IMG/VR virus record: IMGVR_UViG_3300032038_000019
Direction: 5' to 3' (one strand)
Length of the DNA stretch: 62,882 bases
Source: an uncultured virus (IMG/VR IMGVR_UViG_3300032038_000019)
Lineage: Duplodnaviria; Heunggongvirae; Uroviricota; Caudoviricetes
Shown here: one piece after another, positions 27,829 through 62,882 of the stretch
How positions within the stretch are numbered: the first letter of the stretch is position 1
Layout of the letters: each line of letters begins with the position of its first letter
Made by a program: the position numbers and the translations under genes
Notes under the pieces: model-generated
Databases searched by the model: none
Seen by the model: the letters and a program-made list of their open reading frames with translations, nothing else
Told to the model about the DNA's origin: nothing

Positions 27829-28503
27829 TTATTTCCATCCATTCTTTTGATAGTCCATAATAGCTTTATTACCTCTATTTCTTGCCCTCATATAAGGGTA
27901 GTTATCAAATTTATCATCCACTGGGCTCATATCATATCTTCTTTCTTTAGACCATGCACCTTTTTTATTATATGCACGATGCGGTTCACTTGATGTTTCA
28001 CCATTTGATATATTAGGCAAGTCAAATTGGTCTTCCATTCTGTGAATTTTGTGTCGTTTACCACCAGGTGCATTTGTACCTGTTTCTGTAGATAGGTGGT
28101 CATAATATCCACGCATACCTATATTATCAGTTTCAAAAGGCATTTCATAATACCCTTCTTTGTCACGTATACCAAGACCATTTTTTTCAACTTCATCACT
28201 TGTAAGTGCATTATACCCATATTCATCATTAAAACTCTTTCTCATAGCATCATTAAACCCCCTCAATCTATTATCAGTGAAAATATCATGCGTACCTGTA
28301 CTATCAGTATGCCCTACAATGTCAGATTTCCTTCTTGGGTCATCTGGATGCTGCATTAAATGGTCAGCCCATTTCCTTGATGCATTTGCGTATGTCCTCC
28401 AATCAAGTTCATTCAATTGGCTTTCTTTCAAAACTCTTTTTACTGAATTTTCGATAATTCTATGTAAATCACTTTCAGTTAGTCTAATTAATTTCTTTGC
28501 CAT
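27829..28503 (-). CDS. LTESDL-leader family protein (ELDW subfamily); putative capsid-internal protein
   Basis: Start reassigned to ATG at 28503 (MAKKLIRLTESDLHRIIENSVKRVLKESQLNELDWRTY) by similarity to paralogs; TATTTAT motif ~20 bp upstream. Confidence 0.75.
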   Translation of the reverse strand: MAKKLIRLTESDLHRIIENSVKRVLKESQLNELDWRTYANASRKWADHLMQHPDDPRRKSDIVGHTDSTGTHDIFTDNRLRGFNDAMRKSFNDEYGYNALTSDEVEKNGLGIRDKEGYYEMPFETDNIGMRGYYDHLSTETGTNAPGGKRHKIHRMEDQFDLPNISNGETSSEPHRAYNKKGAWSKERRYDMSPVDDKFDNYPYMRARNRGNKAIMDYQKNGWK

Positions 28504-28564
28504 ATTAGTATTTTTTTTTATTAATAAATATCTATGACAAAAAAAAAAGAATGAAAAGTTTCTT

Positions 28565-29836
28565 TTATTCTTTTTTCCAAACATATTTAAATAATCCGCA
28601 ATCCCATATCTTATATGCCCCTAAAGCTTCAGTCATTTCCGACTCAGTCATAGTTAATGGCAGGCCATATTTCCTGTTCAAATGTTGTTTTCTAAAATTA
28701 AATTTATGCACACGTTTTAACCCGTATTCTTTCCTAAAAACATACCTATAATCTGGCCTTAAAATGTTTATAAGTTTGAAATTTAATTTTATATATAAAT
28801 TATCCTCAGGATTAGTTGTCCATCTTCTATCAGCAAAAGATTTAACTTCTATTGGGTCGTATTTTTTAGTAAAATATTTAAATAATTTACCACCAATGCC
28901 ATTGCAAATATATTCATTATTAGATGCGAATCTTGTAAGGTTCCAGTAACCTTCTTTTTCTTTTAGAAAAGACATGACGCCAACCAATAAATCATTGTAA
29001 AAACACCCAAGGTAGATTGATGAACTAGCAAAGCCTTGTATATGATTCTTTGTCAAGAATACTTCCGCTTCTTCTTTGCTAATTTCGTTAATTGTACACT
29101 TTCTACCCATTATTTTTGGCAAGTTATTATTTACACCTAATATATGCAATATTTTTTCTTTAACTAAAGATTTATTTTCAATATATTCATCTTCAAAAAT
29201 CTGTATTAATTTTATGCCTTTTTCGTTACATTTATTAAGTTTATTAAGATGATAATTTTTATCCTTTTGAAATTCTTCTGAATGCCATCTTAACCCATTA
29301 TATTCAATCCCAACATTTATTGAAGGTATAAATATATCTATTTCTAAAGGGTTTATTATCGTTTTATCATTATGTATTGCATCATCAAAATATTGCTTGA
29401 CAAATTCATATATTTCGTTTTCTGGATTAGAAATGTTACTACTACATATAGGGCAACCATGTCCATTCATTAAATCAGAATATCTAATATAAAACATACC
29501 ATGTTTTTTACAAATAGGTGTAATTTTTGTCCTTGCATTCATATAGTCTATTTTAGACAAGTCATATTTATCACCATGTATTTTTTTTATATTATTGATT
29601 ACATCTTCATTTTTTAAAACTCTATCTTTACCTACAGTTTCTGCTCTGCACTTTTTGCAACCGTGTCCATGTAATAAACTATTTGGCTCAACTTCAAATT
29701 CGCCATGTTTTTTACATATTATTTTTAATTTAGTATGTGTGTTTACATAAACAGTATTTGGGGAAATAGTATACCTATCTCCCCAAACGTTTTTTAAATC
29801 TTTAGCAAAGTCTGCTAATGTTTTTTTACTACCCAT
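28565..29836 (-). CDS. Putative homing endonuclease: two zinc-ribbon repeats + PD-(D/E)xK/Vsr-like nuclease
   Basis: 2x CKKHG...GCxxC; LEIDIF...GIEYNGLRWHS...IQIFEDE; paralog of 24610..26475. Confidence 0.8.
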   Translation of the reverse strand: MGSKKTLADFAKDLKNVWGDRYTISPNTVYVNTHTKLKIICKKHGEFEVEPNSLLHGHGCKKCRAETVGKDRVLKNEDVINNIKKIHGDKYDLSKIDYMNARTKITPICKKHGMFYIRYSDLMNGHGCPICSSNISNPENEIYEFVKQYFDDAIHNDKTIINPLEIDIFIPSINVGIEYNGLRWHSEEFQKDKNYHLNKLNKCNEKGIKLIQIFEDEYIENKSLVKEKILHILGVNNNLPKIMGRKCTINEISKEEAEVFLTKNHIQGFASSSIYLGCFYNDLLVGVMSFLKEKEGYWNLTRFASNNEYICNGIGGKLFKYFTKKYDPIEVKSFADRRWTTNPEDNLYIKLNFKLINILRPDYRYVFRKEYGLKRVHKFNFRKQHLNRKYGLPLTMTESEMTEALGAYKIWDCGLFKYVWKKE

Positions 29837-31038
29837 TAATCTTCATCAACTTCTTTTTCATCAAAAGTAATATCTTTTGAATCAACTACAACATCTTGAC
29901 CAGTTTCTGACTTTTCAAGTTCAGCCATAATCTTAGGCACATAATTCTTTTTATAAGAGTCCTGTTGGTCTTCACTAATCAACCCATTATGAACGCAAAT
30001 CATTGTTCCTTCATAAGTTAGATTATAAGGTGTGCTCAACTGATTCTTAATTACCTTAATCTTAGTCAATGTACCCCAATTGTAATTACGTCCCTTACTT
30101 GTAGCCGTAAGATGTTTAATTGAAGCTTTAACAACACCACCTAATTGTATAATCAATCCGTGCGCAGCAAAATACATAGACTTACCACCCTTCAATTCGA
30201 TTGAAGGCGCTGCCATAGGTGCTGACATAGAGTCCAACCAAATCTTATTTACGCAGAACATTGTGTTTGTATAAGGTGAACTAACTTTCTTAGAAAGTGG
30301 TATACGATTATTTGTAATCATATTAAATGCAGTTTGCATAGCACCTGCATCGAACATATTATTTCCAACCTTACTTGCAAATGACTTGTAAGACATTACC
30401 GAACCAATTGAGTCCCATAAGAAACAAATATCTTGCTGAATTTCACCTGCATCTTGCATATCAAGAATTTTATTAATCGCATATGCAATATCTTCAAGAA
30501 CTGGTACTGTTCGTTTTACCTTTGTTTCTTTACCTGTCGAATAATCATTACGGCCATAAAGTTCACAAAGTATAGCACCGTCAAAATACATAAAATCACC
30601 ATCGTAGTTTACAATTTGCGTTTCAGTATGTGTACCTGTTACTTCTCCTGTTTCTTCATCAACGTCTTCAACCTCTACATCGCCATATACAGGTGTTGCT
30701 TCCATACCGCAATCAATAGCATATTTAAAATCAAAATGTGATTCAGTATCAAATATAACAGGCAAAATACCTGACTTTTGACAAGATGCAATAACACAGT
30801 TAATTAATGTACTTTTACCTGTATTACTCCACCCATATACGATTGACAATTCACCTTTAGGAATTCCTGGTAATTTAGTTGCATTAACGAATGCTTCAGG
30901 TAGTGTAATAAATTCAATAGGTTTATTTGCACTTGAAACTGTTAAGTCATCATTCTTAATATTAAGACCCATCTTTTCCTTAATTGATGCAATTGATGGA
31001 CGTGCAAAATTCTTCTTTTTTATAGCTTGTTTAACCAC
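29836..31038 (-). CDS. recA: RecA/UvsX-like recombinase
   Basis: GIPKGELSIVYGWSNTGKST (Walker A), IFDTE, FLWDSIG (Walker B), KGGKSMYF, IKVIKNQ; GTG start overlapping the tdk TAG. Confidence 0.85.
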   Translation of the reverse strand: MVKQAIKKKNFARPSIASIKEKMGLNIKNDDLTVSSANKPIEFITLPEAFVNATKLPGIPKGELSIVYGWSNTGKSTLINCVIASCQKSGILPVIFDTESHFDFKYAIDCGMEATPVYGDVEVEDVDEETGEVTGTHTETQIVNYDGDFMYFDGAILCELYGRNDYSTGKETKVKRTVPVLEDIAYAINKILDMQDAGEIQQDICFLWDSIGSVMSYKSFASKVGNNMFDAGAMQTAFNMITNNRIPLSKKVSSPYTNTMFCVNKIWLDSMSAPMAAPSIELKGGKSMYFAAHGLIIQLGGVVKASIKHLTATSKGRNYNWGTLTKIKVIKNQLSTPYNLTYEGTMICVHNGLISEDQQDSYKKNYVPKIMAELEKSETGQDVVVDSKDITFDEKEVDED

Positions 31039-31649
31039 TATTTCATAACTTTTTTACTTTCTCTTATTTTTTCTTTCCAACATTTTCTACACAATGGCTG
31101 ATAAATATCGTTACCACCTACAAGAATTTGCGAACCTTCCGTAACAACATTATTATTATTATCAAATCTTGCATTAATAATAGATTTCTTACCACATTCG
31201 CAAGATGATTTAATTTCTTCAATATTGTCAGCTATTTCAAAAAGTCTTTTAGATGCTGGAAATAAATGTGACTTAAAATCAGTCCTCAATCCGTAACACA
31301 TCACGGTAATGTTCATGTAATCCACAATATCAGACAATTGGTCAATTTGTTCTTCTGTAAGAAATTGACATTCATCAACTAATATCCATTTTAACGTTTC
31401 ACCACCTTGTACTGCTAAAACATTATTATATTGATGAATTGCTTCATAAATATTGACATCTGGTGTCACAATTGTGCATTTTCTTTCAAGTCCTGCCCTT
31501 GACCTTATAACACCTTCATCCCTTGTATCTAGGGATGATTTGAGTGCTATAAAAGGTATGTTTTTTTCTTCAAAATTATATGCAGTTGCTAATAAATCCA
31601 AGCTCTTTCTCGAATTCATAGCACCGAACATAAATGTTAGTTTAGCCAT
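31038..31649 (-). CDS. tdk: Thymidine kinase
   Basis: GAMNSRKS P-loop, IRSRAG, ILVDECQFLT, CYGLRTDF, CECG...YQPLCRKC zinc site. Confidence 0.95.
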   Translation of the reverse strand: MAKLTFMFGAMNSRKSLDLLATAYNFEEKNIPFIALKSSLDTRDEGVIRSRAGLERKCTIVTPDVNIYEAIHQYNNVLAVQGGETLKWILVDECQFLTEEQIDQLSDIVDYMNITVMCYGLRTDFKSHLFPASKRLFEIADNIEEIKSSCECGKKSIINARFDNNNNVVTEGSQILVGGNDIYQPLCRKCWKEKIRESKKVMK

Positions 31650-32828: not shown

Positions 32829-33315
32829 AGTAATTTTTTACCGCATCTTCACTATAGTTTATAAAACAATATAATTGATGGGTGTTTAAAAGCCTAATTG
32901 ACCGTTTTGAGTTCTTTTGTAGTATTCATTGTATATAGCATCAACAATGTCAGGGTCATCGTATTTCATTCTATTATTCCAATACCTCATAAAACGTTTA
33001 TCATCAATATTGGATAACATTTCGATGGTGTCGTTTTTCAATCTATCTTGAGTTTCTGCATCATCAAATGTTGACTTTAAAGGGTTAGTGCTAACACCTC
33101 CATATGGTGTGTCAAATGTAGCTTCTTTTATTACTCTTTTTACCGATTTCTCCACAATCCTGTGAAGGTCTGATTCTGTTAGTCTTATAAGTCTTTTATT
33201 CATATATATATATTAATTTGTTATTTATTATTAAATATTTCAATATAAGCAAAAAAATGTAACTGTTTCTACCTATATTTCTCACTTATTTGAGTCTAAT
33301 TTCTATATAGTTACT
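32829..33315. mobile_element. Possible degenerate IS-derived cassette carrying an LTESDL gene
   Basis: Right end (reverse complement AGTAACTATATAGAAATTAGACTCAAATAAGTGA) resembles the end at 58815 (GGCAACTATATACAATTAGACCATATTAACTGA); left end AGTAATTTTTTAC; flanks ttatttta / ttttttta (7/8). Confidence 0.3.
32886..33203 (-). CDS. LTESDL-leader family protein
   Basis: MNKRLIRLTESDLHRIVEKSVKRVIKE leader, unique 78-aa remainder. Confidence 0.8.
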   Translation of the reverse strand: MNKRLIRLTESDLHRIVEKSVKRVIKEATFDTPYGGVSTNPLKSTFDDAETQDRLKNDTIEMLSNIDDKRFMRYWNNRMKYDDPDIVDAIYNEYYKRTQNGQLGF

Positions 33316-33343: not shown

Positions 33344-33724
33344 TTACTTAATTTCTTCATATCCATGAGTATTATTGTATTCTTCAATGGTAGCAAATAG
33401 TTCTTGAACTTGTTCTATAGCAGCTTTATTCTCTTCCATAGAATTACATTGAAATTCAACTTTAAAAATATTGGCTGAATTAGAATCATTGTCATAATCT
33501 ATATATGCTTTCCCATCTGCATATTCACCAATACAAATAACTAAAAAGCCATCCTCATTCTCACAATCTATACCTTTTTGACGAGCATACGATGTTATAA
33601 ATTCTTCAAATTCATCTTGCCCTGCAAATTCATCAAAAGAATAATCGTCATCATATGTTACATATTCATCATTTTCTATTAAACGTTTGTATTTCTCTTC
33701 AGATAGTTTAACAACCTTACCCAT
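33344..33724 (-). CDS. Acidic hypothetical protein with a divergent leader (KVVKLSEEKYKRLIE)
   Basis: 126 aa, D/E-rich; N-terminus loosely resembles the LTESDL leader. Confidence 0.7.
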   Translation of the reverse strand: MGKVVKLSEEKYKRLIENDEYVTYDDDYSFDEFAGQDEFEEFITSYARQKGIDCENEDGFLVICIGEYADGKAYIDYDNDSNSANIFKVEFQCNSMEENKAAIEQVQELFATIEEYNNTHGYEEIK

Positions 33725-33726: not shown

Positions 33727-34560
33727 CTACATGTTAAATATTTTATTAAAATCCTGAATATCGTCATCTGGTATGCTAAATGTTTTAGCTATATCATCAC
33801 CAACATAGTCAACATCATCATTTGTTATTATATGCTCTTGAGTTGTTGGCTTGTTATTATCAGAATAAGCATCATAATTACTATTAGCGTTCTTTTCTGC
33901 CCAAAAATCAGTTGGTCTTATGTTAAACGGATATGAATCTAAAGAACGAAGATTCAATTTTTCAGTTTGTGTTGGATTACGTTTTTGGAACTCATTTTTC
34001 AAATCTTCTATTTGTGCGTTATTTTTATCAATAGTACTTTTCATACTTTCAAGAGCGTCTAATAGCTTTTCAATACGCTTATCAACAGTTCCTAAGTCAC
34101 GACCGACACTATTAACTTTATCATTAGTTTTCTCTTGGGCTTTTGTGAGGTCATCAACATCAATTACATCTTCATCATCACCTTCGCCACTGCCCATATC
34201 CATTGGTGAAGGCTCAGGCATACTATCCATAGGGCCAGAACCCATATCCATTGAAGAAGGGTCAGGCTCTCCACCCATAGGGTCAGTGCCATTATCAGGA
34301 CCACCACCCATAGGGGTAGCATTACCATCAGGAGTGCTACTCATAGGGTCTTGTCCTCCCATAGTATCATCTCCACCCATAGGGTCAGTGCCATTACCAG
34401 GACCGCCACCCATAGGGGCAGCACCACCATTGGCATCTTCATCATAACCATCTTCTTCGATTGGCTTATAGATACCATAGCCTTCCACCATTCTCATAAA
34501 TTGCTTATGGGCATCATATAAATTGTTTTCTTTTAAAAACTTTACATTAGTTTTAGCCAT
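33727..34560 (-). CDS. Putative prohead core/scaffold-like protein
   Basis: G/P/M/D-rich low-complexity repeats followed by a predicted coiled coil (VDKRIEKLLDALESMKSTIDKNNAQIEDLKNEF); I/L-x-E sites near the N-terminus; function inferred. Confidence 0.45.
   Translation of the reverse strand: MAKTNVKFLKENNLYDAHKQFMRMVEGYGIYKPIEEDGYDEDANGGAAPMGGGPGNGTDPMGGDDTMGGQDPMSSTPDGNATPMGGGPDNGTDPMGGEPDPSSMDMGSGPMDSMPEPSPMDMGSGEGDDEDVIDVDDLTKAQEKTNDKVNSVGRDLGTVDKRIEKLLDALESMKSTIDKNNAQIEDLKNEFQKRNPTQTEKLNLRSLDSYPFNIRPTDFWAEKNANSNYDAYSDNNKPTTQEHIITNDDVDYVGDDIAKTFSIPDDDIQDFNKIFNM
34268..34423. repeat. Two ~53-bp intragenic direct repeats (PMGGGPxNGTDPMGG)
   Basis: ctccacccatagggtcagtgccatta[t/c]caggacc[a/g]ccacccatagggg[t/c]agca at ~34269 and 34371. 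Confidence 0.85.
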
Positions 34561-50014: not shown

Positions 50015-50048
50015 AAAAATGGGAACTATTTAAATAGTTCCCATTTTT
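50015..50048. terminator. Perfect 34-bp palindrome, likely terminator
   Basis: aaaaatgggaactattt|aaatagttcccattttt directly after the 50048 stop. Confidence 0.65.
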
Positions 50049-52291: not shown

Positions 52292-53170
52292 TTACCAGTC
52301 TTTTCTGTTTGGGTTATATTTGTCTGCGCTTGCATCAATCAAGTATGTTCCTCCCATTGGGAATTTCCTACCACCAATTAGAATATAACCACATTCAACC
52401 GTAGCGTTGCTATTCATTCTAATCTCCGTTTCATTTGCCATTTCATATGAATTAATATAAATTGTCTCAAGCCAATTAATTGAATCTGGATGAACATAGC
52501 CACATATTTTAACTGTTGTAACCCCATTATTCAATATTGAATGGTTTGAGCAATAACTGGAAGCATTATTCTTTTTCCATGACCAACATTCACCAATTGA
52601 TTTAAACCCCAATTCATTCATTTCCTGATTGGTATCAATGTCTATATTTCGTTCAACATATATAAGGCCACGTTTATTATATTTGAATCTACCAACTATA
52701 TCAATTTCGAAGTGTCTCTTAAAGAATACAAATCCGTCCCTCTGTACCCCATCAGTACTCTTGCAAGCCCAATTATATGCTTCTTCCATATAAGGGCCGT
52801 ATGCATCAATTAAACGACCTTCATAGTTAGGTAACTTACCTTTCTGGCCAAATGACTTTATATAGTTGACAATATTGACAATTTTCTGTTCATAACAAGT
52901 GTTTAAACCGCCTACAGCTTCATTAATATTAAGTGGTTTATCAAACACTAATCGCTGCCTATTATTATCTGTGAAATATATGCCATAACCAAAATCCTGA
53001 GAGTGCTGACCAGTGTTTATTTTTTCATTGGAAAATTTATCAAAAAAGTAAGGGCTACCGTGACATAACTTAACTGAATCACTGTTTTCATTCAACACAC
53101 GATGCACGACAACCTTAACAATATTATGAATATCTTCCTCTGTGAGTTTGATTATTTTCTTTTTCATCAT
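52292..53170 (-). CDS. LTESDL-leader family protein with ADP-ribosyltransferase-like motifs
   Basis: Leader KKIIKLTEEDIHNIVKVVVHRVLNE; then CHGSPYFFDKF...GYGIYFTD (ART-PolyVal-like start); C-terminal YVER / CWSW / ETEI pattern like an R-S-E ART. Confidence 0.55.
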   Translation of the reverse strand: MMKKKIIKLTEEDIHNIVKVVVHRVLNENSDSVKLCHGSPYFFDKFSNEKINTGQHSQDFGYGIYFTDNNRQRLVFDKPLNINEAVGGLNTCYEQKIVNIVNYIKSFGQKGKLPNYEGRLIDAYGPYMEEAYNWACKSTDGVQRDGFVFFKRHFEIDIVGRFKYNKRGLIYVERNIDIDTNQEMNELGFKSIGECWSWKKNNASSYCSNHSILNNGVTTVKICGYVHPDSINWLETIYINSYEMANETEIRMNSNATVECGYILIGGRKFPMGGTYLIDASADKYNPNRKDW

Positions 53171-53712
53171 TTTTTTCCTTTATGCTCACTATCATTTTTT
53201 ATTTTGTTTTTATGACGTTTGTTCTTATTTTCCTTAATAGTATTAACTTCGTTTTGAATCTTTAGAACTTCTTTAAGTTGCCGCATGACTAATTCAGGTC
53301 TTTCATTAACATCCTTTTCCCATATTCTATATAAAGGTATACCATGCAGTAATGCCCATTTATTTTTATATTCGTCAACCCTTCTATTTTTTTTCTGCAT
53401 AGGGTTCATTTTAGTTTCATCAACTATTCTTGGGTCTGAATGATAATAAGAGCCATCAAATTCTAATAAAATATTATCATTTGGTAAATAAAAGTCATAA
53501 AATCTTCCTATTTCCTTTGCTTCAAATTGCCAAACATATTTAACACCTAATTTATCAAGAAAATCAGTTGCGAATTTTTGTTCTGCTTTACTTGTCCCAA
53601 ACTTAGGATGCTCACGTATTACTTTACCTTTAGCATCCCTTTGCATTTTTTTCTTCTTCTTGACTATTGTTTTATTGGCTATTTTCCTATTTTTTTTAAT
53701 TGCTTGTTTCAT
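53167..53712 (-). CDS. DUF559/Vsr-like PD-(D/E)xK endonuclease
   Basis: SKAEQKF...FYDFYLPNDNILLEFDGSYYH...KNKWALLHGIPLYRIWE. Confidence 0.8.
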   Translation of the reverse strand: MKQAIKKNRKIANKTIVKKKKKMQRDAKGKVIREHPKFGTSKAEQKFATDFLDKLGVKYVWQFEAKEIGRFYDFYLPNDNILLEFDGSYYHSDPRIVDETKMNPMQKKNRRVDEYKNKWALLHGIPLYRIWEKDVNERPELVMRQLKEVLKIQNEVNTIKENKNKRHKNKIKNDSEHKGKK

Positions 53713-54621: not shown

Positions 54622-57600
54622 TTATTCTGTATAGTATATTATATCTCCAGTAAAAGTAGCTTGCTTGTCTGAATAAAGTGTATTATTATCGTCTATACGT
54701 TCATTATAATTCCCATCAACAAATTCTTGATACACTCTTGATAAGTTATGGAATTTATAATAAGTTTCTACTATTTCCGTACCATTGTTATATAAAATGT
54801 CTTTATATGTAAAACATATTATAGGGTCGTATAAATGCCCAATACTATCAGAAGCAATGTTCAATATGCTTTCTGTATTATTTTTATATTCAATAGGGAA
54901 TTTTTCAGACGTAAATGTATATTTAGCCCCAACGTTTGTTACCCCATTTTTCCCTGATATATCAAGATAGAATGTTGTCGGTGATGTATTCATTACAAAA
55001 AAGTCTTTACGGTAGAACCAATCGCCATTGTCAACACTATAATCCCCTTTATTAAATATTTTCCATAATTCATAATACGGACTATTTGCAGTATATTTTC
55101 CTTTTACACCATCTTCTGATTTTAATAAAGGTATGTAATAATCACCTTTTGTGCCTCCACCAAGTGAATTTTCAAAAACACTGTTTTCCAAATCACTAAT
55201 TGTATTCGCTATCACAAAAATATTTGACGTATTATTAATATATTCCCTCGTTTCATAATAGCTTTCTGTATTGGCAAATGACGAATCTTTATCATTTTCA
55301 ATACCCACCTTACATACATATTTACCGTTCATTAAATTAGCGTATGGGTCAGAATTAACAAATGAGTATTCACCATCAACATATTCACCTTTCACTTTTT
55401 TAGCATAATATTTTTTAGCATATTCATATTCACCTAAATTAGTACCAGTAGGTAATGATGCCAAACTTATTAAATGTTTATATTCAGCGTAAGCCAGCAT
55501 AAGTAAATTAGACCTGCTATCAAAATTACCGTTTTGGTACAATTTCCTCATAATTTTATGCTCGTCATCAGTAAAATGTTCTTCTTGATTTTCTCCACCA
55601 GGAACCCACATAATTCCACCAGGACCTAAATCATATAACAAATTACCATCATTATCATAAAATGAAAGGACCATCATATTTAAAGGATTTCCACTAACAT
55701 CCGTGTTTTTATAGCCAAATTGTATATTCGGTGTCGCAGCAGATGCTGCACGATATATACCAATTTCACCACCTTCCATCACAATTCTTGGACCATTATC
55801 ATTATATGGGTTAGTATTAACTGTGTCAGCAGTTAGTCCGCCATTTGTTATTTTTTCACCTAATTCAGTAAACTTAGCCGACATTACTTTTTGATTTTGT
55901 CCAATATTGCCGACAGTTACGTTGATACCACTTACTGTCTGTTCCATAGAAGACATATTACCACTTAAATTTTGTACGGTAGAAGATAATGCTGAACTTG
56001 TCTGTTTTACAGTAGATACGTCCCCACTTAAATTTTGAACAGTTGAAGATAAGCTTGATGCTGTCTGCTTTACAGTAGATACATCTCCGCTTAAATTTTG
56101 CACTATAGATGTCCACCCTGAAGCTGTTTGTTTAAATGTACTTAAATCACCAAATTCATTAATTAATGACTGCGTAACAGCAGATGATGTTTCAGTTCTT
56201 AAAAAATTAGAAGTATAAGAAGGATTAATAGTCTTTGTATCAAGTGCGAAATCTTGTGAAATCGTACCTTTATTTTTCAAAAAGATTGACACTATAATAC
56301 TTTTAACTTCTTCATCATCAGCTAAATTATGAACCCCTTCTTGGTATTTTTCATTTGTGTAAACAAATAAGTTATCAGAGTTTACTTTTATTTCTCTAAA
56401 GTTTGTGTTAATATTATCACAATAATACATTACAATACTTCCGTCAGTCACAGTAACAGGTACACCTTCGGCATCTACTTTAGCAGCATAACAATTAATG
56501 CTTACATGTATATTGTCGTCAGCTTTAATAATAGCTTTTAGCCCATTTGCATCTTTAGGTACAATAACATACTTATTCGAATCGTTTGGTGCATAAGGAG
56601 ACCACGTGTATTCTTTAGGGTCTGTAGATGTTGATGTTGGGTCATTCTCAGCTTTTATTTTATTGTAACCAGTACCTATATATTTTTTATATGTGCCGTC
56701 ATCATTCTTACTAGCATCACTTATATTAACACCATATCCTTCACTATCAAGTTCATTAGCATATTTAACCCATGTGTAATAAGTCGTACCAACCCCATCA
56801 GCACCCCTGAATCGTGACCATGAGTAATTTTCCCAGTTAGACCCTTCGGCAGCTGTTTCTTGATTAGGGCAAATTCCTATGTATTTAGTATCTTCTGTCG
56901 GTTGCTGGTATGCTGATGTTGGATATTTTTTACCAGAAGCATCTGTTTCGCTAAGTTCATCTGCATAAACTATCCAAGTATAAAGTGTTTTACCAGGTTC
57001 ACCAGGTACGCCATCATCACCTTTAATTAGCGACCACGTATAAGCAGACACATCATCACTTTCGTTCTCATCTGTATTATTATATGAAAAACCAATGTAA
57101 GGTAATACTTTACCATTGTAAACAGGGTCGTTGAAAGTCCTTGTACTTGTAGCACCGCTTTCTGAATAACGAATCCATGTGTAGTAAGTTGCTCCATCTT
57201 CAGGTGCAGCAGTTTCAGATATTTCAGTTTGTATCACGCTCCCATCGCCATATGTATATCTTGTGAAACTATATAGTGAATCTTCTTTACTACTTTTTAA
57301 AATATAAGTTTCACTCCATCCAAATTTTATTGGGTCATCTTTTTTATTAACTTCTGAAGGTTTACTTGAACTTAGTTTATAATAAGTTTTAACTGATTTT
57401 AAAACATTACCAATTTCTTGTTTTATTAACTCAGACGTTTGTTCTTGTGTTGAAAAATTAGTGCTATCAATAACCGATTGTGTTATTGATGAAGCAGTTT
57501 GCTTAACAACTGACATTGTATCATTAATTTTATCATCTACTGTAGATGTAATTGATGATGCTGTTTGTTCAATCATAGATGATAAGTCGCCAGATAAAGC

Positions 57601-57912
57601 ACTAACAGAACTTGTAATAGAACTTTCAGTTATTTGAATAATTGAATTCATGTCAATATCATTAGTTACATGTGATAATGTTAACTTACCATTACGTTCT
57701 GCAACTACTGCCATATAAGTAATTATTTCGTTGTTATCATCTAAATATCTTACAATAACAGGTTCGCCATCTTTTGCTCCTAAAGTGTCAAGATTATCAC
57801 TGATTTTATCAATAAGTTCAATTGCACTTTGTCTATTTGGTTGTATATTATTGTTTTGGATATTGTTTCTCAGAAATTGAACTACCTGTTGTTTTTTTAT
57901 TTCGTCAGACAT
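54622..57912 (-). CDS. Tail fibre / receptor-binding protein
   Basis: 3x YTW(I/V)xY...YIG...Y(T/S)WS modules, two joined by collagen-like G-x-y linkers; 21-aa S/T-rich coiled repeats (SSTVQNLSGDVSTVKQTAS); divergent C-terminus; TATTTAT motif upstream. Confidence 0.75.
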   Translation of the reverse strand: MSDEIKKQQVVQFLRNNIQNNNIQPNRQSAIELIDKISDNLDTLGAKDGEPVIVRYLDDNNEIITYMAVVAERNGKLTLSHVTNDIDMNSIIQITESSITSSVSALSGDLSSMIEQTASSITSTVDDKINDTMSVVKQTASSITQSVIDSTNFSTQEQTSELIKQEIGNVLKSVKTYYKLSSSKPSEVNKKDDPIKFGWSETYILKSSKEDSLYSFTRYTYGDGSVIQTEISETAAPEDGATYYTWIRYSESGATSTRTFNDPVYNGKVLPYIGFSYNNTDENESDDVSAYTWSLIKGDDGVPGEPGKTLYTWIVYADELSETDASGKKYPTSAYQQPTEDTKYIGICPNQETAAEGSNWENYSWSRFRGADGVGTTYYTWVKYANELDSEGYGVNISDASKNDDGTYKKYIGTGYNKIKAENDPTSTSTDPKEYTWSPYAPNDSNKYVIVPKDANGLKAIIKADDNIHVSINCYAAKVDAEGVPVTVTDGSIVMYYCDNINTNFREIKVNSDNLFVYTNEKYQEGVHNLADDEEVKSIIVSIFLKNKGTISQDFALDTKTINPSYTSNFLRTETSSAVTQSLINEFGDLSTFKQTASGWTSIVQNLSGDVSTVKQTASSLSSTVQNLSGDVSTVKQTSSALSSTVQNLSGNMSSMEQTVSGINVTVGNIGQNQKVMSAKFTELGEKITNGGLTADTVNTNPYNDNGPRIVMEGGEIGIYRAASAATPNIQFGYKNTDVSGNPLNMMVLSFYDNDGNLLYDLGPGGIMWVPGGENQEEHFTDDEHKIMRKLYQNGNFDSRSNLLMLAYAEYKHLISLASLPTGTNLGEYEYAKKYYAKKVKGEYVDGEYSFVNSDPYANLMNGKYVCKVGIENDKDSSFANTESYYETREYINNTSNIFVIANTISDLENSVFENSLGGGTKGDYYIPLLKSEDGVKGKYTANSPYYELWKIFNKGDYSVDNGDWFYRKDFFVMNTSPTTFYLDISGKNGVTNVGAKYTFTSEKFPIEYKNNTESILNIASDSIGHLYDPIICFTYKDILYNNGTEIVETYYKFHNLSRVYQEFVDGNYNERIDDNNTLYSDKQATFTGDIIYYTE
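55945..56150. repeat. 63-bp (21-aa) tandem repeats in the tail fibre
   Basis: Three to four copies of (S/T)S(T/I)VQNLSG(D/N)(V/M)S(T/S)(V/M)(K/E)QT; coordinates approximate. Confidence 0.8.
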
Positions 57913-57943
57913 ATTAATTTTTTAACTATAAATATTAAATAGC

Positions 57944-57975
57944 AAAAAAAGGTAAGAGAAAAACTCTTACCTTTT
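57944..57975 (-). terminator. Intrinsic terminator
   Basis: aaaaggtaagag...ctcttacctttt. Confidence 0.7.
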
Positions 57976-58039
57976 ATTACATTTGCTATTTTAAAACTAA
58001 TAACATCGAAATTGGTCTTGTTCAGTAAGCCTAATTAAT

Positions 58040-58780
58040 CTATTTATATTTTTGTTCTGTTATTACCATCTTATATGTTTTTATTTTTTTAAAATGTTTA
58101 AGTAAAAAAACGTTAGTCAATCTTTCAGCCAAATAACCCCCGATTCTGTATTGATACCAAACTTCGTTATTAGGGCTAAAATTTTTAAGATATTTTTCTT
58201 TATTATTTTCTATCCTTTTCTCTATGTCAATGCCAACATATTTGATATATTCATCCAACACATTTCTTATAAAATCAACATATTCTTCAAAATCTTCTTT
58301 TTTCATTATCACCATATTACAAGGAAACATCATTGATGAATTCATAACATTTTCAAATGCATCAAAATACATTGGAAACTTTTTTCTAATTATCTCTTCA
58401 ACAATATCCAAATCCTCTACATTGTGACATAAAGCATACTGCCATCTAACAGTTCCATTGAATGTAATTGGGTCACATGCAATAGCATCACACTGTTTAA
58501 ATACCTCGTCCATGTTAGGTATATCATCCATAAACTCAAAGTATTTCCTATACGAACATACCCCAACATATTTTTTCAACTCAATATTATCTTTTATATG
58601 AAAATAACTCATTATCTCTGAATAAAAGCTTCCCTTTAACCCGTTATCAGCAATATCACCATTAATATCATTTGAGTTAATTACTTTATATGTTTTGTTT
58701 TTAAGTATATTGTTAAAATCTTTGTGAGTGCATATAAATATGTCAACATCATTTTTTTCTTTAGTGTCTAAAAAATTCAT
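58040..58780 (-). CDS. DUF4422-domain glycosyltransferase-like protein
   Basis: IFICTHK, YSE, YVGVCSYRKYF, NMVIMKKEDFEEY, YQYRIGGYLAERL match the DUF4422 pattern; start taken at ATG 58780. Confidence 0.8.
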   Translation of the reverse strand: MNFLDTKEKNDVDIFICTHKDFNNILKNKTYKVINSNDINGDIADNGLKGSFYSEIMSYFHIKDNIELKKYVGVCSYRKYFEFMDDIPNMDEVFKQCDAIACDPITFNGTVRWQYALCHNVEDLDIVEEIIRKKFPMYFDAFENVMNSSMMFPCNMVIMKKEDFEEYVDFIRNVLDEYIKYVGIDIEKRIENNKEKYLKNFSPNNEVWYQYRIGGYLAERLTNVFLLKHFKKIKTYKMVITEQKYK

Positions 58781-58887
58781 CTTTTCTTTTGTTCTTTCAT
58801 TATATAAAAAAAATGGCAACTATATACAATTAGACCATATTAACTGAAAAAATAAAGAGCAATCACAATTGATTACTCCTTTTATTA

Positions 58888-59508
58888 TTATTGCCATCCT
58901 TGACCCTTTACGTATTTTGATTTGTTGTTGTAGTAACCATCTAAATCATTGCCAACTGAAGTTATCTTATTTTTATAATCATTGCTGACTCTATTTAACA
59001 TCTTACCATTGTCTCCATTGCCTCCTATCTTTTTCATAGCGTACCCAGTATCATTTTTAACGTAATTTTTGCCAAACCCATGATATGCTGTGCCACCAGC
59101 AAGGGTATTTCTACCAATTTTTTCCCTATAATCCCCCCAAGGCGTTTTCATAGTATCTCCATACATGGGTGATGTGTAGTCTCTTTCATCTTTCATATAA
59201 CCACCATTCATATTAACGTTTCCCCTAAGCAGTGCATTAACACCAGTGTCATTCGCTGGCGACACGTCTTCATGCGAACCATATGCCCAACTGTCACCAA
59301 AATGCTGTTTTTGAAATTGTTGGCTAGAATAGGCTTCTAAATTTGATGCTTTATCACTTTTTCCTTGTGCTTGCCTTGCTCTTGCAGCATTCATATATGT
59401 CTTCCAATCAAGTTCATTCAATTGGCTTTCTTTCAAAACTCTTTTTACTGAGTTTTCGATAATTCTATGAAGGTCTGATTCTGTTAGTCTTATGAGTTTC
59501 TTATTCAT
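58888..59508 (-). CDS. LTESDL-leader family protein (ELDW subfamily)
   Basis: MNKKLIRLTESDLHRIIENSVKRVLKESQLNELDWKTY; about 65 bp near-identical to 28398-28464; ends GQGWQ. Confidence 0.8.
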   Translation of the reverse strand: MNKKLIRLTESDLHRIIENSVKRVLKESQLNELDWKTYMNAARARQAQGKSDKASNLEAYSSQQFQKQHFGDSWAYGSHEDVSPANDTGVNALLRGNVNMNGGYMKDERDYTSPMYGDTMKTPWGDYREKIGRNTLAGGTAYHGFGKNYVKNDTGYAMKKIGGNGDNGKMLNRVSNDYKNKITSVGNDLDGYYNNKSKYVKGQGWQ

Positions 59509-59586
59509 ATTATATACGTATTTTTAATAATAAATATCGTCAAGATTTGTTTATTCGATAAATATCTGTAACTTTGCAGCAAAATT
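59500..59586. repeat. Divergent promoter block, also present at 62611-62697
   Basis: Shared ttattcatat...tatacgtatttt...aataaatatc..caagatttgttt..ttcgataaatatctgtaa.tt.gcagcaaaatt. Confidence 0.85.
59546..59576 (+). promoter_or_regulatory. Bacteroidota sigma-A promoter (TTTG-N19-TAACTTTG)
   Basis: Exact consensus followed by cagc, an A-rich leader and ATG at 59593. Confidence 0.8.
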
Positions 59587-59595
59587 AAAACAATG

Positions 59596-59628
59596 AAAAT
59601 GAGCAACCGTGATTGGCTGCTCATTTTT
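59596..59628 (+). terminator. Intrinsic terminator
   Basis: aaaatgagcaacc-gtgatt-ggctgctcattttt. Confidence 0.65.
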
Positions 59629-59853
59629 GTATATCTATACACTATTGGATTTTACTGCCAACAGGTATGTAGTTCCCTTTTTTTTGCTTTTTTAAACCCA
59701 TAAAAAAAAGATATTTACCTATATATTATTTGTGCAAAAATATAGATAAATATCCGAAAAAACAAGAAATTGCTACTATTTCTTTAACTTTTTTTATTAC
59801 TTACTTTCATAATTACTTTAGCAAAACGCTGTAACTACTTGATTATCAGGCAA

Positions 59854-60342
59854 TTAGTAACAGAGTATAGCATAATCAAACCTTAATGTTGCTTGAATTG
59901 TAGCAAGTTCACTTGAACTGTAATCCAAATCACCAAATGACACATTTGTTAACATTGTGTTTTTAAGAATCCACTTAGACACAACAACACCTGTAGGGTC
60001 AAGCATTTCCAATTCTACGTCACGTTTATAGCCAGCTGCATAACCCTGTCTACCTGTAACTGATTCTGAATGCAAACGAACCCATTCCATAATAGCCTGT
60101 GAAGCACTTGGGCCAATTGGGTCACGTAATGTTACTTGAATTGTTTCCCATGTATATCTACCAACAACATAAGTTGATGTGTTCAAGAATGGAATTGGAG
60201 TTTCATCCTGTGTGATAGATGGACGTGATGCACTTGAAAGCCACCACTCTTGAATGCCCAAATCTGCAGGGAACCTGAATAACCATCTATTTTTCCTTAA
60301 TGGCTCATAATTGAGCGGCATCTTCAAAAGTAAATCTGACAT
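59854..60342 (-). CDS. Tail tube protein (T4 gp19-like)
   Basis: EPLRKNRWLFRF...SASRPSI...GRYTWETIQVTLRDPI...YKRDVELEMLDPTGVVVSKWIL...FGDLDYSS...TLRFD; 162 aa. Confidence 0.9.
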   Translation of the reverse strand: MSDLLLKMPLNYEPLRKNRWLFRFPADLGIQEWWLSSASRPSITQDETPIPFLNTSTYVVGRYTWETIQVTLRDPIGPSASQAIMEWVRLHSESVTGRQGYAAGYKRDVELEMLDPTGVVVSKWILKNTMLTNVSFGDLDYSSSELATIQATLRFDYAILCY

Positions 60343-60459
60343 ATTTTATATATTTAATATATTTATTTTTATATAATATAAATATTATATTTTATAATTT
60401 TAATAATATATTTTGTTATTTAAATAAAATATTATATATTAGCATAAGAAAAAAGAGTT

Positions 60460-60993
60460 ATGGATAAATTAGATAAATTTATTAAAAAAGCAAAATCTGT
60501 CCACGGAAATAAATATGACTATTCAAAAGTTTGCTACGTCAATAGTCAAACTAAGGTTTGTATAGTTTGTCCAGAGCATGGTGAATTTTGGCAAACACCC
60601 GCTAATCATATTCGTGGAAATAAATGCCCTATATGTTCTAATAAAGGACGTGGTAGTAAAAAGCGTTCTTCTACTGAAGAATTTATTGAAAAGGCAAAAT
60701 CTGTTCATGGCAATGGCATTGAGGGCTTTTGGGCACATTTCAAGCGTGTTGTATTTGGCGCATATCACTGTGTTAGTAAGGACTACTTACCTCGTTATAT
60801 TGACGAGCAAGCCTATCGTTGGAATACTCGCAAGGAGAGTGCTTCATTCCGCTTTGAGGATATGTTCAAGAGGGCAGCAAAATCCTTTGATTACACTGAT
60901 GCATTGGCTCTCTCAAGTGTGGTAAGTATTGAGCATTTTAGGGAGTATAGGGTTATGTGTTACAACCTTTGGAAATCAACACATTGTGCATAA
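60460..60993 (+). pseudogene. In-frame chimera: zinc-ribbon homing-endonuclease N-terminus fused to IS1595-family transposase C-terminus
   Basis: Residues 1-85 match the KYDYSKV..CPEHGEFWQTP..CPIC repeat of 24610..26475; from NGIEGFWAHFKR...YHCVSKDYLPRYIDE..YRWN it matches the IS1595 DDE transposase C-terminus; higher GC after ~60712. Confidence 0.8.
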
Positions 60994-61096
60994 AAAAGAG
61001 CGAATCAGAACGATTCGCCCATATGTTCGACAAGTCCATTGGTTTAGTACGTAAGTGGTCTGAAATCAGCGTTGGGTTGATGGCTGCTTAATGTTA

Positions 61097-61387
61097 TTAC
61101 TGTATGCTTTGTAAATCCTTAATAGTTTTCAGACAGAGTTCATATATTTTGTAGTATTCAAAGTGTGCATTTCCATTAGGAATCATTTCGCTATCACCAC
61201 CATATACGTGTGATTCAGATTCTTTTTGCAAAGCACTTGAAACAGCAGATAATGAAAAAATGGCTTGTTGGATATTCTGCTGGAGATACGCATTATCGCC
61301 AATCCCTTCTTTTAATACTTTATTTACTGATTGCTTCACGATTCTATGCAAATCTGATTCTGTTAGTCTAATTAATTTCTTATTCAT
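61097..61387 (-). CDS. LTESDL-leader family protein
   Basis: Start reassigned to ATG 61387 (MNKKLIRLTESDLHRIVKQSVNKVLKE); the longer predicted start lies inside a TIR. Confidence 0.8.
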   Translation of the reverse strand: MNKKLIRLTESDLHRIVKQSVNKVLKEGIGDNAYLQQNIQQAIFSLSAVSSALQKESESHVYGGDSEMIPNGNAHFEYYKIYELCLKTIKDLQSIQ

Positions 61388-61395
61388 GCTATAAA

Positions 61396-62190
61396 GGTAA
61401 TAATATAGTAGTTGGCACAAATATTTATTTTTTAAAAAGTAAATTTGAATACTGCCTATAGTTTTGCTTTACCCACTCTATACACATAGAAAGTTTACGA
61501 CTTATATACAATGGTTTCACTTTTGTTTTTTTTGTGATAAAAAAATCATATTCACCATTATAGTATGGCATTACTGCAAAATATTTACAACCATTATAAT
61601 TTATTCTTCTTAAATTTATAAAATCCTTTGCTGTTTTATTATATATAATAATTTCATCTGTTGGAAACTTAAATTCAAGATTCTTTGTTTTAACGCCACT
61701 AGCCCTAAACATCACATATTTTACAGAATTATAAAATTGACTATCACATTCATCGACAACTAAATCAATCCTTTTATCGGCTGGAAAGGCAAATGTATAG
61801 CCACTATTTGTTCTCTCTTGATAATTACCAGTACACCATAAAAACTCTTTTTTATCCGCAGGAAATGCATATTTAAAACCACTATTTGCAATATTTCCTT
61901 TTTGGTTTTGAATATGTATTAGCCAATCAGTTTTGAACACGTCTGGTTTAGTAAACACATAATTATCTGATTGGTTGTTTGTTTTAATATCTTTATCACC
62001 AAATACATCATTTATATATTTATGATTTGAAGGAGAAATATTTTTTGCCGCTAAATAATCAAATAAAGGTTTACCGTACTCTTTATCTAAATATTCGTTA
62101 ATACTTTCTTTAATTATTTTGTCAACATTAATAATCATAATAATAAATATTATCAAAAATTTATTTTGTGCCAACTGCTATATTATTGCC
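61396..62190. mobile_element. Non-autonomous IS-derived insertion cassette (795 bp) with 26-bp TIRs and 8-bp TSD
   Basis: Left TIR GGTAATAATATAGTAGTTGGCACAAA (61396-61421); right TIR reverse complement GGCAATAATATAGCAGTTGGCACAAA (62165-62190), 24/26; flanks gctataaa (61388-95) / gttataaa (62191-98); no transposase inside. Confidence 0.85.
61425..62138 (-). CDS. Cassette passenger protein with short leader (DKIIKESINE); possible ART-like fold
   Basis: Start taken at ATG 62138, with TATTTAT a few bp upstream; WLIH...IANSGF...GYTFAF...VMFRASGV...DEIII pattern. Confidence 0.65.
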   Translation of the reverse strand: MIINVDKIIKESINEYLDKEYGKPLFDYLAAKNISPSNHKYINDVFGDKDIKTNNQSDNYVFTKPDVFKTDWLIHIQNQKGNIANSGFKYAFPADKKEFLWCTGNYQERTNSGYTFAFPADKRIDLVVDECDSQFYNSVKYVMFRASGVKTKNLEFKFPTDEIIIYNKTAKDFINLRRINYNGCKYFAVMPYYNGEYDFFITKKTKVKPLYISRKLSMCIEWVKQNYRQYSNLLFKK

Positions 62191-62256
62191 GTTATAAATG
62201 TATTTAATTCGTTATTTCCTATATATAAATCATTAAGAATTGGAAAAGATTATTAT

Positions 62257-62619
62257 TTACTGCCATTCCCCATTATCATATTCTGAAAAATTATCGTCAG
62301 CAAAGTATTTATTATAGTCTCTAAAGAGTTTAGTCATATTTTCAAAATCTTTTTCATTTGTTCTGATGGTGAATAAAACTTGTTCCTTTGTTAAATCATA
62401 TTGCTGCATCATATATTCTAACCTCTTTTTTAAAAACAAATCATGTTGTCTTTTTCTCTTTTCATTGTGCGAATCTGAGGGTGTGAACATATCATTAGCA
62501 GCACCAATCATTGCGGAATCCGCAGTTCTCCAATCAAGTTCTGTGAGAACTTGGTTTACAGACTCCTTCACAATCTTGCTGAGTGTGGATTCTGTTAATC
62601 TAATTCTATTCTTATTCAT
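62257..62619 (-). CDS. LTESDL-leader family protein (ELDW subfamily)
   Basis: MNKNRIRLTESTLSKIVKESVNQVLTELDWRTA; ends NGEWQ. Confidence 0.8.
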   Translation of the reverse strand: MNKNRIRLTESTLSKIVKESVNQVLTELDWRTADSAMIGAANDMFTPSDSHNEKRKRQHDLFLKKRLEYMMQQYDLTKEQVLFTIRTNEKDFENMTKLFRDYNKYFADDNFSEYDNGEWQ

Positions 62620-62655
62620 ATTCTATACGTATTTTCTAAATAAATATCATCAAGA

Positions 62656-62687
62656 TTTGTTTTATTCGATAAATATCTGTAATTTCG
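62656..62687 (+). promoter_or_regulatory. Bacteroidota sigma-A-type promoter (TTTG-N20-TAATTTCG)
   Basis: Copy of the 59546-59576 promoter with one mismatch to the -7 consensus. Confidence 0.6.
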
Positions 62688-62730
62688 CAGCAAAATTGAT
62701 ATTTATTGTTGAACTAACATAATTATAGTT

Positions 62731-62882
62731 ATGGAAAAGAATAATAAGACAGTTAAAATTGACCTTGGCAATGGATGCTTGTTTGAAAATGGGGAGATAA
62801 AAAGCGTGCTGACAGAAGAACAAGAATCTGAAATTTGGATGTCGTGGGATGAAGGATGGCAATGGGTCATTAACTCTCTTCA
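62731..62882 (+). CDS. Hypothetical protein, truncated by the window end
   Basis: ATG 62731 MEKNNKTVKIDLGNGCLFENGEIKSVLTEEQESEIWMSWDEGWQWVINSL... open to the end, downstream of a sigma-A-type promoter; absent from the ORF track. Confidence 0.55.
   Translation, partial: MEKNNKTVKIDLGNGCLFENGEIKSVLTEEQESEIWMSWDEGWQWVINSL

Follow-up and report, generated by a model that had tools for sequence, protein, structure and literature searches.

How do unrelated accessory genes of a phage come to share one amino-terminal leader, and why do some of them lie among the ends and remnants of insertion sequences (ISs)? The question was raised by a stretch of 62,882 nt from the uncultured virus IMGVR_UViG_3300032038_000019 (Caudoviricetes). 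This whole stretch is called the window here, and all coordinates refer to it unless another record is named. It contains six genes that begin with a common 27-residue motif and, between 58.0 and 62.9 kb, pieces of IS1595-type elements. Complete elements of this kind were found in related phages and in Bacteroidales chromosomes, and the pieces in the window are therefore read, with good confidence, as decayed transporter ISs (tISs) and mobile insertion cassettes (MICs) of a single IS1595 lineage that occurs in both host and phage.

The tail-tube protein of the window has 552 relatives in IMG/VR, and the best 80 of these supplied the 80 loci (L-numbers) that were compared. Since tail-tube relatives lie on contigs of up to 412 kb, the window is placed by its sequence in a jumbo myophage lineage. 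Four distinct whole phage records were available, G002, G003, G005 and G006 (G001 and G002 are one and the same record). The nearest is G002 (279,749 bp), which contains locus L002 and shows 95-97% identity to the window where the two are aligned by BLAST.

The leader was analysed with a 32-residue profile (A2) that was built from the six clear copies in the window. When the open reading frames (ORFs) of the window were scanned, exactly six matched, with E values from 1e-20 to 2e-16. All are on the minus strand and start at 28503, 33203, 53167, 59508, 61387 and 62619. The box given for some of them is the heptamer TATTTAT, with its distance to the ATG in brackets.

27829..28503, minus strand: leader gene 1, 224 residues from an internal ATG; A2 E 1e-19; box 28524-28530 (-27); no IS end within 30 kb
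32886..33203, minus strand: leader gene 2, 105 residues; A2 E 2e-20; no end-like site scoring at least 8 nearby; box variant ATATTTAA only
52292..53167, minus strand: leader gene 3, 291 residues; A2 E 2e-16
58888..59508, minus strand: leader gene 4, 206 residues; A2 E 4e-20; box 59530-59536 (-28); inside cassette 1
61097..61387, minus strand: leader gene 5, 96 residues; A2 E 1e-20; convergent with a transposase remnant, as in the complete element of L028
62257..62619, minus strand: leader gene 6, 120 residues; A2 E 2e-18; box 62640-62646 (-27)

The motif, with the consensus KxIRLTESDLHRIVKESVxKVLxE, stands at the extreme amino terminus in all six. The regions that follow it are dissimilar, with the exception of one pair, genes 1 and 4 (g28503 and g59508; 29% over 90 residues, E 1e-7). 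A first-pass annotation of this DNA had counted six to eight dissimilar proteins under one leader. The shared leader and, apart from this pair, the dissimilar tails were borne out, and the count came down to six. The weak candidates at 33344-33724 and 61425-62138 were rejected, as neither obtained an A2 profile score even at E<=10.

Outside the window the motif is abundant: among 1.84 billion cluster representatives it was found in 6012 at E<=0.001 and in 991 at E<=1e-10. Many of the matching proteins carry 2-4 copies or an internal copy, and some tandem motifs are each still preceded by a Met. Judged from its coding DNA, the motif is selected as a protein: in 61 different DNA copies, taken from phage as well as bacterial loci, the entropy at codon positions 1, 2 and 3 was 0.70, 0.47 and 1.35, and Ser11 of the motif is encoded by both TCN and AGT codons. 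None of 18 sampled motif proteins showed a Pfam or PHROG family above threshold. Searches of Pfam, PHROGs and PADLOC with the leader and cargo proteins yielded no family above threshold, and the ESM Atlas returned clusters without names (scores of at most 0.84); homologues of leader gene 4 were found in metagenomes only, without family names.

The IS traces of the window and the genes that they interrupt lie together with leader genes 4, 5 and 6. End scores refer to a position matrix of the 23-bp end.

58016..58047, minus strand: leader-gene ghost, the first 11 codons (ATA for ATG, then NRLIRLTEQD) of a 152-residue leader gene that is intact in L002
58040..58814, minus strand: DUF4422 glycosyltransferase half-gene (PF14393 E 3e-27), severed from its N-terminal domain by cassette 1
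58815..59677, no strand: cassette 1, 863 bp, transposase-less IS1595-type; ends 58815-58837 (score 14.0) and 59655-59677 (score 29.5); cargo leader gene 4 with its own box
59678..59701, minus strand: stranded glycosyltransferase start, ATG and about 7 codons, upstream of cassette 1; read against L002 10637-10660
60460..60714, plus strand: homing-endonuclease N-terminal piece (DUF4379, phrog_559), reading in frame into the transposase remnant; homology with L002 stops at 60714
60712..60993, plus strand: IS1595 transposase C-terminal remnant of the L049 type; PF12762 positions 105-153 of 153, E 1e-11; tblastn 61% to residues 237-332 of the L049 transposase
60993..61091, plus strand: second transposase remnant, of the L028 type, last 32 codons at 60993-61088; tblastn 94% to residues 297-328; DNA 94% identical to L028 12220-12319
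61396..62190, no strand: cassette 2, 795 bp, transposase-less IS1595-type; 23-bp inverted repeats 61396-61418 and 62168-62190; end scores 33.3 and 39.4
61425..62138, minus strand: cargo ORF of cassette 2, 237 residues, without leader, no known family

The ends of both cassettes are 23-bp inverted repeats. Exact matches to GGNAANNATATAS number 4 in the window, with 0.6 expected, and the matrix detected four sites scoring at least 12, these being the four cassette ends only, against 0.1 in shuffled sequences. Cassette 2 is bounded by the strongest inverted repeat of the region (I1; 32 nt, 91% complementary), and its ends belong to the same family as the IS ends of L028 and L016. It is located 8 bp before the ATG of leader gene 5, where it splits the 5' leader region of that gene. 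When the cassette and one flank copy are removed, the sequence resembles the 5' leader of the L028 cargo gene, which is the mark of a true insertion. The flanks, GCTATAAA at 61388-61395 and GTTATAAA at 62191-62198, match at 7 of 8 positions. The terminal inverted repeats originally proposed for 61396-62190 are real, and the 8-bp target-site duplication proposed with them is not perfect. The cargo ORF of cassette 2 matched nothing in Pfam, PHROG or PADLOC and has no relative in IMG/VR; a single near-identical protein was found among 5.8 billion.

Both ends of cassette 1 fall exactly on homology breakpoints with L002, the closest relative; a further L002 breakpoint marks the point where the transposase remnant begins. 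Cassette 1 replaces 787 bp of a two-domain glycosyltransferase gene, which runs across the breakpoint at position 58814 in 5 of 5 relatives (L002, L003, L028, L031 and L042). The loss of this gene appears to have occurred by insertion and a subsequent IS-mediated adjacent deletion. The end types of cassette 1 are also present in L049, G006, L175 and L184. A further feature was read by eye: just inside the cargo-side end and before the cargo box there is a terminator-like hairpin with a T run (window ~59597-59628, L028 ~12680-12710, L049 ~2750-2785), which may insulate the cargo from outside transcription.

The ORF at 60460-60993 is a chimera. Its first 85 residues are those of a homing endonuclease that is intact in L002 (547 residues, ORF 8240-9883), and from 60712 on it encodes the C-terminal end of DDE_Tnp_IS1595. 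The IS1595 transposase C-terminus that had been noticed at 60712-60993 was thus confirmed by the PF12762 match, and it is followed by the second remnant of a different type. The first remnant has a G+C content (GC) of 0.42, compared to 0.30 for the window. The suggestion that two, possibly three, leader genes lie between related terminal repeats was upheld in part: the cassettes at 58815-59677 and 61396-62190 are real, the ORF inside the latter has no leader, and the third interval, 32829-33315, was rejected, as no end-like site of at least 8 is near it and the exact pattern does not match there.

Insertion sequences are rarely seen in virulent phage genomes. In the window and the 80 loci, 29 sites reached an end-matrix score of at least 16, whereas shuffled sequences gave 0.33. 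The element at L028 11226-12738 is intact and consists of the end GGCAATAACATCGCACTTGGCAC, a 328-residue transposase, a convergent 102-residue leader gene with its own upstream region, and the inverted end. Its two ends match at 21 of 23 positions, and AAAAATTA on both flanks is a perfect 8-bp duplication, 8 bp being the target duplication given for the IS1595 family in ISfinder. The transposase matches both PF12762 (DDE_Tnp_IS1595, E 2e-45) and PF12760 (IS1595 zinc ribbon, E 6e-9), and the element splits an endonuclease ORF. The inverted-repeat consensus of the complete element is GGCAATGATATAGCAGTTGGCAC, the box of its cargo gene is placed about 25 nt before the ATG, and the 8-bp targets that are duplicated are AT-rich. 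The same layout was found in L049 2717-4695 and in L016 6055-8556. Assignment to the IS1595 family is based on the zinc-ribbon and DDE transposase of L028, the 23-bp inverted repeats and the 8-bp duplications; the window itself has C-terminal transposase remnants only.

Reduced forms of the element are also found in the related phages. L022 9200-9917 is a cassette of 718 bp with a leader gene only, and G003 236702-237361 has a passenger gene between IS-type ends and no transposase. In other cases the cargo of the IS has no leader, as in cassette 2 of the window and in the cassettes L030 2444-4190 and L056 14406-16247, which have 25-nt perfect ends, T or A runs as flanks and ORFs of 457 and 542 residues; the 457-residue ORF of L030 matches the Big_2 and BspA-type leucine-rich-repeat families. 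By tblastn, eight relatives, like the window, keep only C-terminal pieces of the transposase, this being the end that abuts the cargo. Separately, G006 152019-152420 contains two inverted IS1595-type ends about 400 bp apart, resembling a miniature inverted-repeat transposable element with little room for a gene.

Relatives of the L028 transposase were found in bacteria, with 86-98% identity in rumen Prevotella assemblies and at greater distance across the Bacteroidales. The bacterial loci include two isolate genomes, Prevotella sp. MA2016 and tf2-5, and the neighbouring genes are ordinary chromosomal genes. Both ends are present in 39 of 78 loci. In 30 of these 39 complete elements an ORF with the motif lies between the transposase and the far end, and 31 of the 39 have perfect 8-bp flank repeats, with one more showing a single mismatch. 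The motif in these copies is either N-terminal or stands behind an N-terminal domain of 100-240 residues and a linker ending in ENKQY...N-M, and 36 of 41 cargo genes of bacterial ISs have their own TATTTAT box. In phage and bacterial copies alike the GC of the cargo (0.32-0.38) is below that of the transposase (0.43-0.46), the bacterial flanks having 0.36-0.58 and the phage about 0.30. This fits a cargo that would be of AT-rich, possibly phage, origin. Thus an IS1595 lineage with leader genes as cargo, which had been proposed from the window, is seen in complete form in L016, L028, L049 and the Bacteroidales chromosomes, and is more general than first thought.

A side observation concerns the N-terminal domain of about 165 residues that precedes the motif in many IS cargo proteins (bacterial L148, L152, L162, L175, L144 and L178; phage L016 6623-7441). 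In its alignment (A3) R41, H45, Y106 and D134 are invariant. A structure model of this domain had a mean predicted local distance difference test (pLDDT) score of 67, reaching 92, and gave no fold match in Foldseek (best E 0.15) or VIA (best Z 4.8).

These elements correspond to two types that have been described. IS1595-family ISs with passenger genes are known as tISs (Siguier, Gagnevin and Chandler 2009, as cited in PMC3129680), and transposase-less MICs are exemplified by MIC231 of Bacillus cereus (De Palmenaer et al. 2004, as cited in PMC3129680). Like tISs, the complete elements have a zinc-ribbon plus DDE_Tnp_IS1595 transposase, terminal inverted repeats and an 8-bp target duplication. 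A transposase and passenger genes inside the repeats, as in tISs, are found in L016, L028, L049 and 30 of 39 bacterial elements; nothing in the window qualifies, as it contains no intact transposase. Compared with the tISs in the cited passage of that review, the present lineage has one hallmark cargo, the 27-residue motif gene, which is convergent with the transposase and has its own TATTTAT box. It also occurs both in Bacteroidales chromosomes and in virulent-type jumbo phages, the window having only remnants and transposase-less derivatives. MICs, as outlined there, are resembled by the two window cassettes and by those in L022, L030, L056 and G003, with IS ends around a passenger gene and a movement that is presumed to need the cognate transposase in trans. 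They differ from the MICs of that outline in that IS1595-derived ends occur in a phage genome and that cassette 1 lacks a target duplication, which we read as lost by adjacent deletion; their mobilisation is putative.

For the window, this suggests that the region 58.0-62.9 kb is a plastic spot of a rumen jumbo myophage in which members of the IS1595 lineage inserted and then decayed. What remains are two transposase 3' remnants, one cargo gene abutting them and two transposase-less cassettes. The cassettes may have been moved in trans by the transposase of intact elements that the host chromosome or co-infecting phages carry, and the cargo genes would have outlived their own transposase because they are presumably useful to the phage.

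How tightly the leader genes are linked to the IS was counted in three whole relatives and the window. An end was found within 200 bp in 7 of 39 leader genes, compared to 36 of 1256 other ORFs (p 1.9e-4); when the window was left out, the numbers were 4 of 33 and 33 of 1217 (p 0.014). In the 80 loci, an end or a transposase piece lies within 300 bp in 10 of 41 leader ORFs, and 31 of 41 have neither. The enrichment near IS ends, which the first-pass annotation had expected, therefore exists, yet most of the leader genes in phages do not take part in it. With the motif gene in 30 of 39 bacterial elements and few phage copies near ends, we read the IS as the vehicle that delivers leader genes, most copies of which now stand alone with no detectable IS ends.

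Several observations weigh against this picture. More than 200 bp separate 32 of 39 phage leader genes from any end, and G002, the closest relative, has 9 leader genes, none of them near an end; the enrichment could partly reflect that both reside in plastic regions. Only G006 among the four distinct phage records has a transposase. A target duplication is missing at cassette 1, one end of which scores no higher than 14.0, and the 7-of-8 match at cassette 2 lies in flanks that are AT-rich and partly palindromic. The empty sites with a single duplication copy that were looked for in relatives were not found: BLAST of the flanks of either cassette against all loci compared matched only the leader region. 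The movement of the cassettes in trans, finally, is a step that we only infer.

The many solitary leader genes, 76-82% of which are without any IS trace in phages, could instead mean that the family spreads mainly by duplication and homologous recombination at a module of promoter plus leader, much as modules are described to be shuffled in T4-type phages. The IS would then be secondary, landing in dispensable regions and occasionally capturing a neighbour. Such events have left marks in the window. Genes 4 and 6 share the promoter and a 5' region that is 95% identical over 37 nt (direct repeat D13), the leader itself being less alike, and genes 1 and 4 are 84% identical over 132 nt and then diverge. 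The ghost at 58016-58047, which was read by comparing L002 12150-12790 with window 57880-58110 and from the BLAST breakpoints, has its deletion breakpoint inside the leader, and the tandem motifs that each follow a Met point the same way. From genes 1, 4 and 6 it follows that recombination at the shared module also reshapes the leader family. As the main route of spread, however, it is improbable, since the link on the IS side is tight and old: the motif gene occupies the same convergent position in the complete bacterial elements, with transposases down to about 67% identity, and such a constant cargo is not expected from chance capture. The lower GC of the cargo relative to the transposase in phage and bacterial copies also argues against it. 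Within the reading as an IS1595 lineage that carries leader genes, the leader coding sequence would serve in addition as homology for recombination, which would explain the ghost, the mosaic 5' ends and the multi-motif proteins.

The constant position and orientation of the motif gene beside the transposase in 30 of 39 bacterial elements also raises the question whether the motif protein belongs to the transposon, as a regulator or a partner of the transposase, and is no phage effector at all. Accessory regulatory genes are common in ISs according to the cited part of PMC3129680. We consider this very unlikely. The phage genomes keep 9-18 intact motif genes (G002 9, G003 18, G005 9, G006 10), although three of the four distinct records have no transposase; everything outside the 27-residue motif is hypervariable; and the box in front of these genes is common to structural genes of the phage.

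This box was examined as a possible promoter. In the window TATTTAT stands 27-28 nt before the ATG in 3 of 6 leader genes (28503, 59508 and 62619), so that it is found in half of them and not in most, as had been stated. When it was counted in G002, G003, G006 and the window, a sharp positional peak was observed at 21-30 nt before start codons, with 92 of 1254 non-leader genes, compared to 2-16 in most other 10-nt bins. The genes in this peak include the prohead protease, the adjacent acidic scaffold-like gene and several large structural genes or ORFs of 600-1600 residues. Window genes with the box in front of them are leader genes 1, 4 and 6, the 1096-residue fibre gene, a 385-residue adaptor-like gene and three others. 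Leader genes have it more often than other genes at -38 to -15 (14 of 39 against 112 of 1256, p 6e-6), also when the window is left out (11 of 33 against 107 of 1217, p 1e-4). TATTTAT is thus a candidate late-promoter box of this phage group, taken as such because of the head and structural genes that share it, and we take the tagged proteins to be late-expressed phage accessory proteins.

A late box and a short common tag recall the internal head proteins of T4. According to the relevant parts of PMC5694885, all of these reach the prohead core through a capsid-targeting sequence (CTS), and the protease gp21 cuts after Glu, processing Alt at ITE-6 and LTE-619. The internal proteins are a diverse set in which the targeting sequence alone is conserved (PMC3012670, in the passage cited). 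The leader could, as the first-pass annotation proposed, be a capsid-targeting tag: the late promoter would co-express the tagged proteins with the head proteins, the tag would dock in the prohead core, a T4-type protease would cut after Glu10 and/or Glu27, and the IS would trade effectors that are injected. All six window genes have the tag at their very N-terminus, and of 61 copies of the motif all have E10 and 60 have E27. Both lie in an (L/I)xE context that would fit gp21-type cuts (L8 in 59 of 61; position 25 is L in 52 and I in 7). A Peptidase_S77, the T4 gp21-type prohead protease, is encoded in 5 of 5 relatives, and in 3 of 5 a leader gene is near it: directly downstream on the same strand in G006; downstream on the same strand in G005 (L082), where the leader gene is orthologous and a 323-residue ORF, read as an inserted homing endonuclease, lies between; and on the opposite strand in G002. 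The protease, the scaffold-like gene and large structural genes have the box in common with leader genes.

Leader gene 3 also bears on the packaging of its product. It is a mosaic, in which the leader is followed by a remaining stretch of about 45 residues from an ART-PolyVal/DUF3990 domain and by a C-terminal domain that is conserved (residues 90-283). Its DUF3990 match is below the cut-off (19.9 bits), but its relative P0261, which is 91% identical, passes both DUF3990 and ART-PolyVal; the alignment (A5) shows that about 150 residues are missing in leader gene 3, truncating the ART-PolyVal part. The C-terminal domain was modelled with pLDDT 80-96. Fold matches were weak, the best being the ADP-ribosyltransferase Vis in Foldseek (E 0.14) and a hit in VIA with Z 3.7 and a root-mean-square deviation of 4.3 over 102 residues. 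About 26 of 42 chains at Z>=2 in VIA are, by our own count, ADP-ribosyltransferases or their relatives. R166, S190/S196 and E246-x-E248 are each kept in 20 or all of the 21 aligned rows, and R-S-ExE is the pattern of catalytic residues in ADP-ribosyltransferases. The protein of leader gene 3 may thus be an ADP-ribosyltransferase, the fold resemblance being weak. The ART-PolyVal class has been predicted to be packaged in virions, and T4 Alt is a packaged ADP-ribosyltransferase (PMC5512222, in the section cited).

The packaging idea is weakened because the motif is standard in the chromosomal IS copies, being the usual cargo in 30 of 39, and is often internal, behind an N-terminal domain of 100-240 residues, or present in 2-4 copies. 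The conserved stretch has 27 residues, whereas the T4 CTS has about 10. No cultured phage encodes a match to a leader protein, as judged from leader gene 4, which was searched by tblastn in 50,697 phage records. We therefore regard T4-style head loading of the tagged proteins with subsequent cutting at the two (L/I)xE sites as our leading guess, though a tentative one, and the full scheme, with docking in the core and the IS trading injected effectors, as rather doubtful. A still wider version is unlikely: the tag would be a signal for head loading and protease processing and the box a late promoter, and the IS1595 lineage would shuttle virion effector genes between phages and park copies in Prevotella, silent until late phage transcription, when their products would enter progeny heads, as hitchhikers that travel on to the next cell or as a Trojan horse of the host against the phage.

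The reading as decayed tISs and MICs of a shared IS1595 lineage also has to be set beside other known phage systems. With the T4 internal proteins IPI-III and Alt, as presented in the cited passages, the tagged proteins have in common that they are unrelated proteins with a short N-terminal tag, to which putative (L/I)xE cleavage sites, a gp21-type protease in the relatives, a late-type box and one protein with ADP-ribosyltransferase-like parts may be added. The tag differs from the CTS described there in being 27 residues long, also internal or repeated and standard in bacterial IS cargo, and it is known from sequence alone. P0261 resembles polyvalent proteins through ART-PolyVal, which belongs to a class of domains whose delivery together with the DNA has been predicted (PMC5512222, same section), whereas the window proteins are small, have one or two domains and include only a truncated ART-PolyVal part.

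T4-type phages are another comparison. Arbiol and co-workers reportedly described, in 2010, promoter/stem-loop cassettes that shuffle ORFs in these phages. Such cassettes are said to contain small new ORFs, located in plastic regions and flanked by common regulatory sequence at which recombination can occur, as is the case here. The present system differs in having the ends and the DDE transposase of a real transposon, and its shared module extends into coding sequence. In the literature we found no account of the motif cargo, of the phage-type box or of one lineage common to Prevotella chromosomes and jumbo phages, and among the matches listed for IS1595 passenger genes none concerned phages or Prevotella by its title or the start of its abstract.

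The remainder of the window is in keeping with a large myophage in its gene content. It has a GC of about 30% and nearly all genes are on the minus strand. T4-like tail and baseplate genes are encoded (gp19-type tube, gp25, baseplate hub and tape measure), as are a RecA/UvsX-like protein, a thymidine kinase, an anaerobic ribonucleotide reductase, an intein-bearing helicase and several homing endonucleases. No head genes were found in the window, and Rfam and tRNA scans of it gave nothing. Parts of the stretch are present in 24 sequencing runs, which are mostly labelled as bovine gut metagenomes, the habitat being taken from the run labels only. With blastn, the region 58000-62882 showed only short endonuclease matches in the phage collection.

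Some further observations were made in the window. The DnaB-like helicase ORF at 19876-22383 (minus strand, 835 residues) probably carries the intein: its residues 425-491 match LAGLIDADG_3 and have helicase-like sequence on either side. Within 36 kb there are four genes or gene fragments of a single homing-endonuclease family (phrog_559, with DUF4379 zinc-finger repeats), at 24610-26475, 28565-29836, 53167-53712 (minus strand) and 60460-60714 (plus strand). The fibre gene at 54622-57912 encodes 1096 residues, compared to 1632 in L002 (L002 12751-17649), the size difference being due to extra copies of an internal repeat module of about 400 bp in L002, with four paralogous BLAST matches. The first half of a 277-residue protein (33727-34560, minus strand) shows Pro/Gly/Met-rich repeats in tandem (GGxPDxGTDPMGG) and the second half resembles a coiled coil; no family matched this protein above threshold. 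A perfect 22-nt palindrome pair with overlapping arms is found at 50015-50048, between the tape-measure gene and the next ORF.

In conclusion, one IS1595 lineage is common to rumen Prevotella chromosomes and their phages of 280-410 kb, with transposase identities of up to 98%. The lineage carries a self-contained expression unit of phage style, a promoter box and a tagged ORF, and offers host and jumbo phage a concrete way of exchanging genes. Part of a very large protein family of unknown function, the 6012 cluster representatives mentioned above, is also explained by it. Should the tag direct head loading, the lineage would be the first known case of a transposon that spreads effectors delivered by virions, and the tag would offer a handle for loading proteins into the capsids of Bacteroidales phages. 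If it is not, the lineage still adds a well-defined, active group of cargo ISs and their cassettes to the annotation of gut and rumen genomes.

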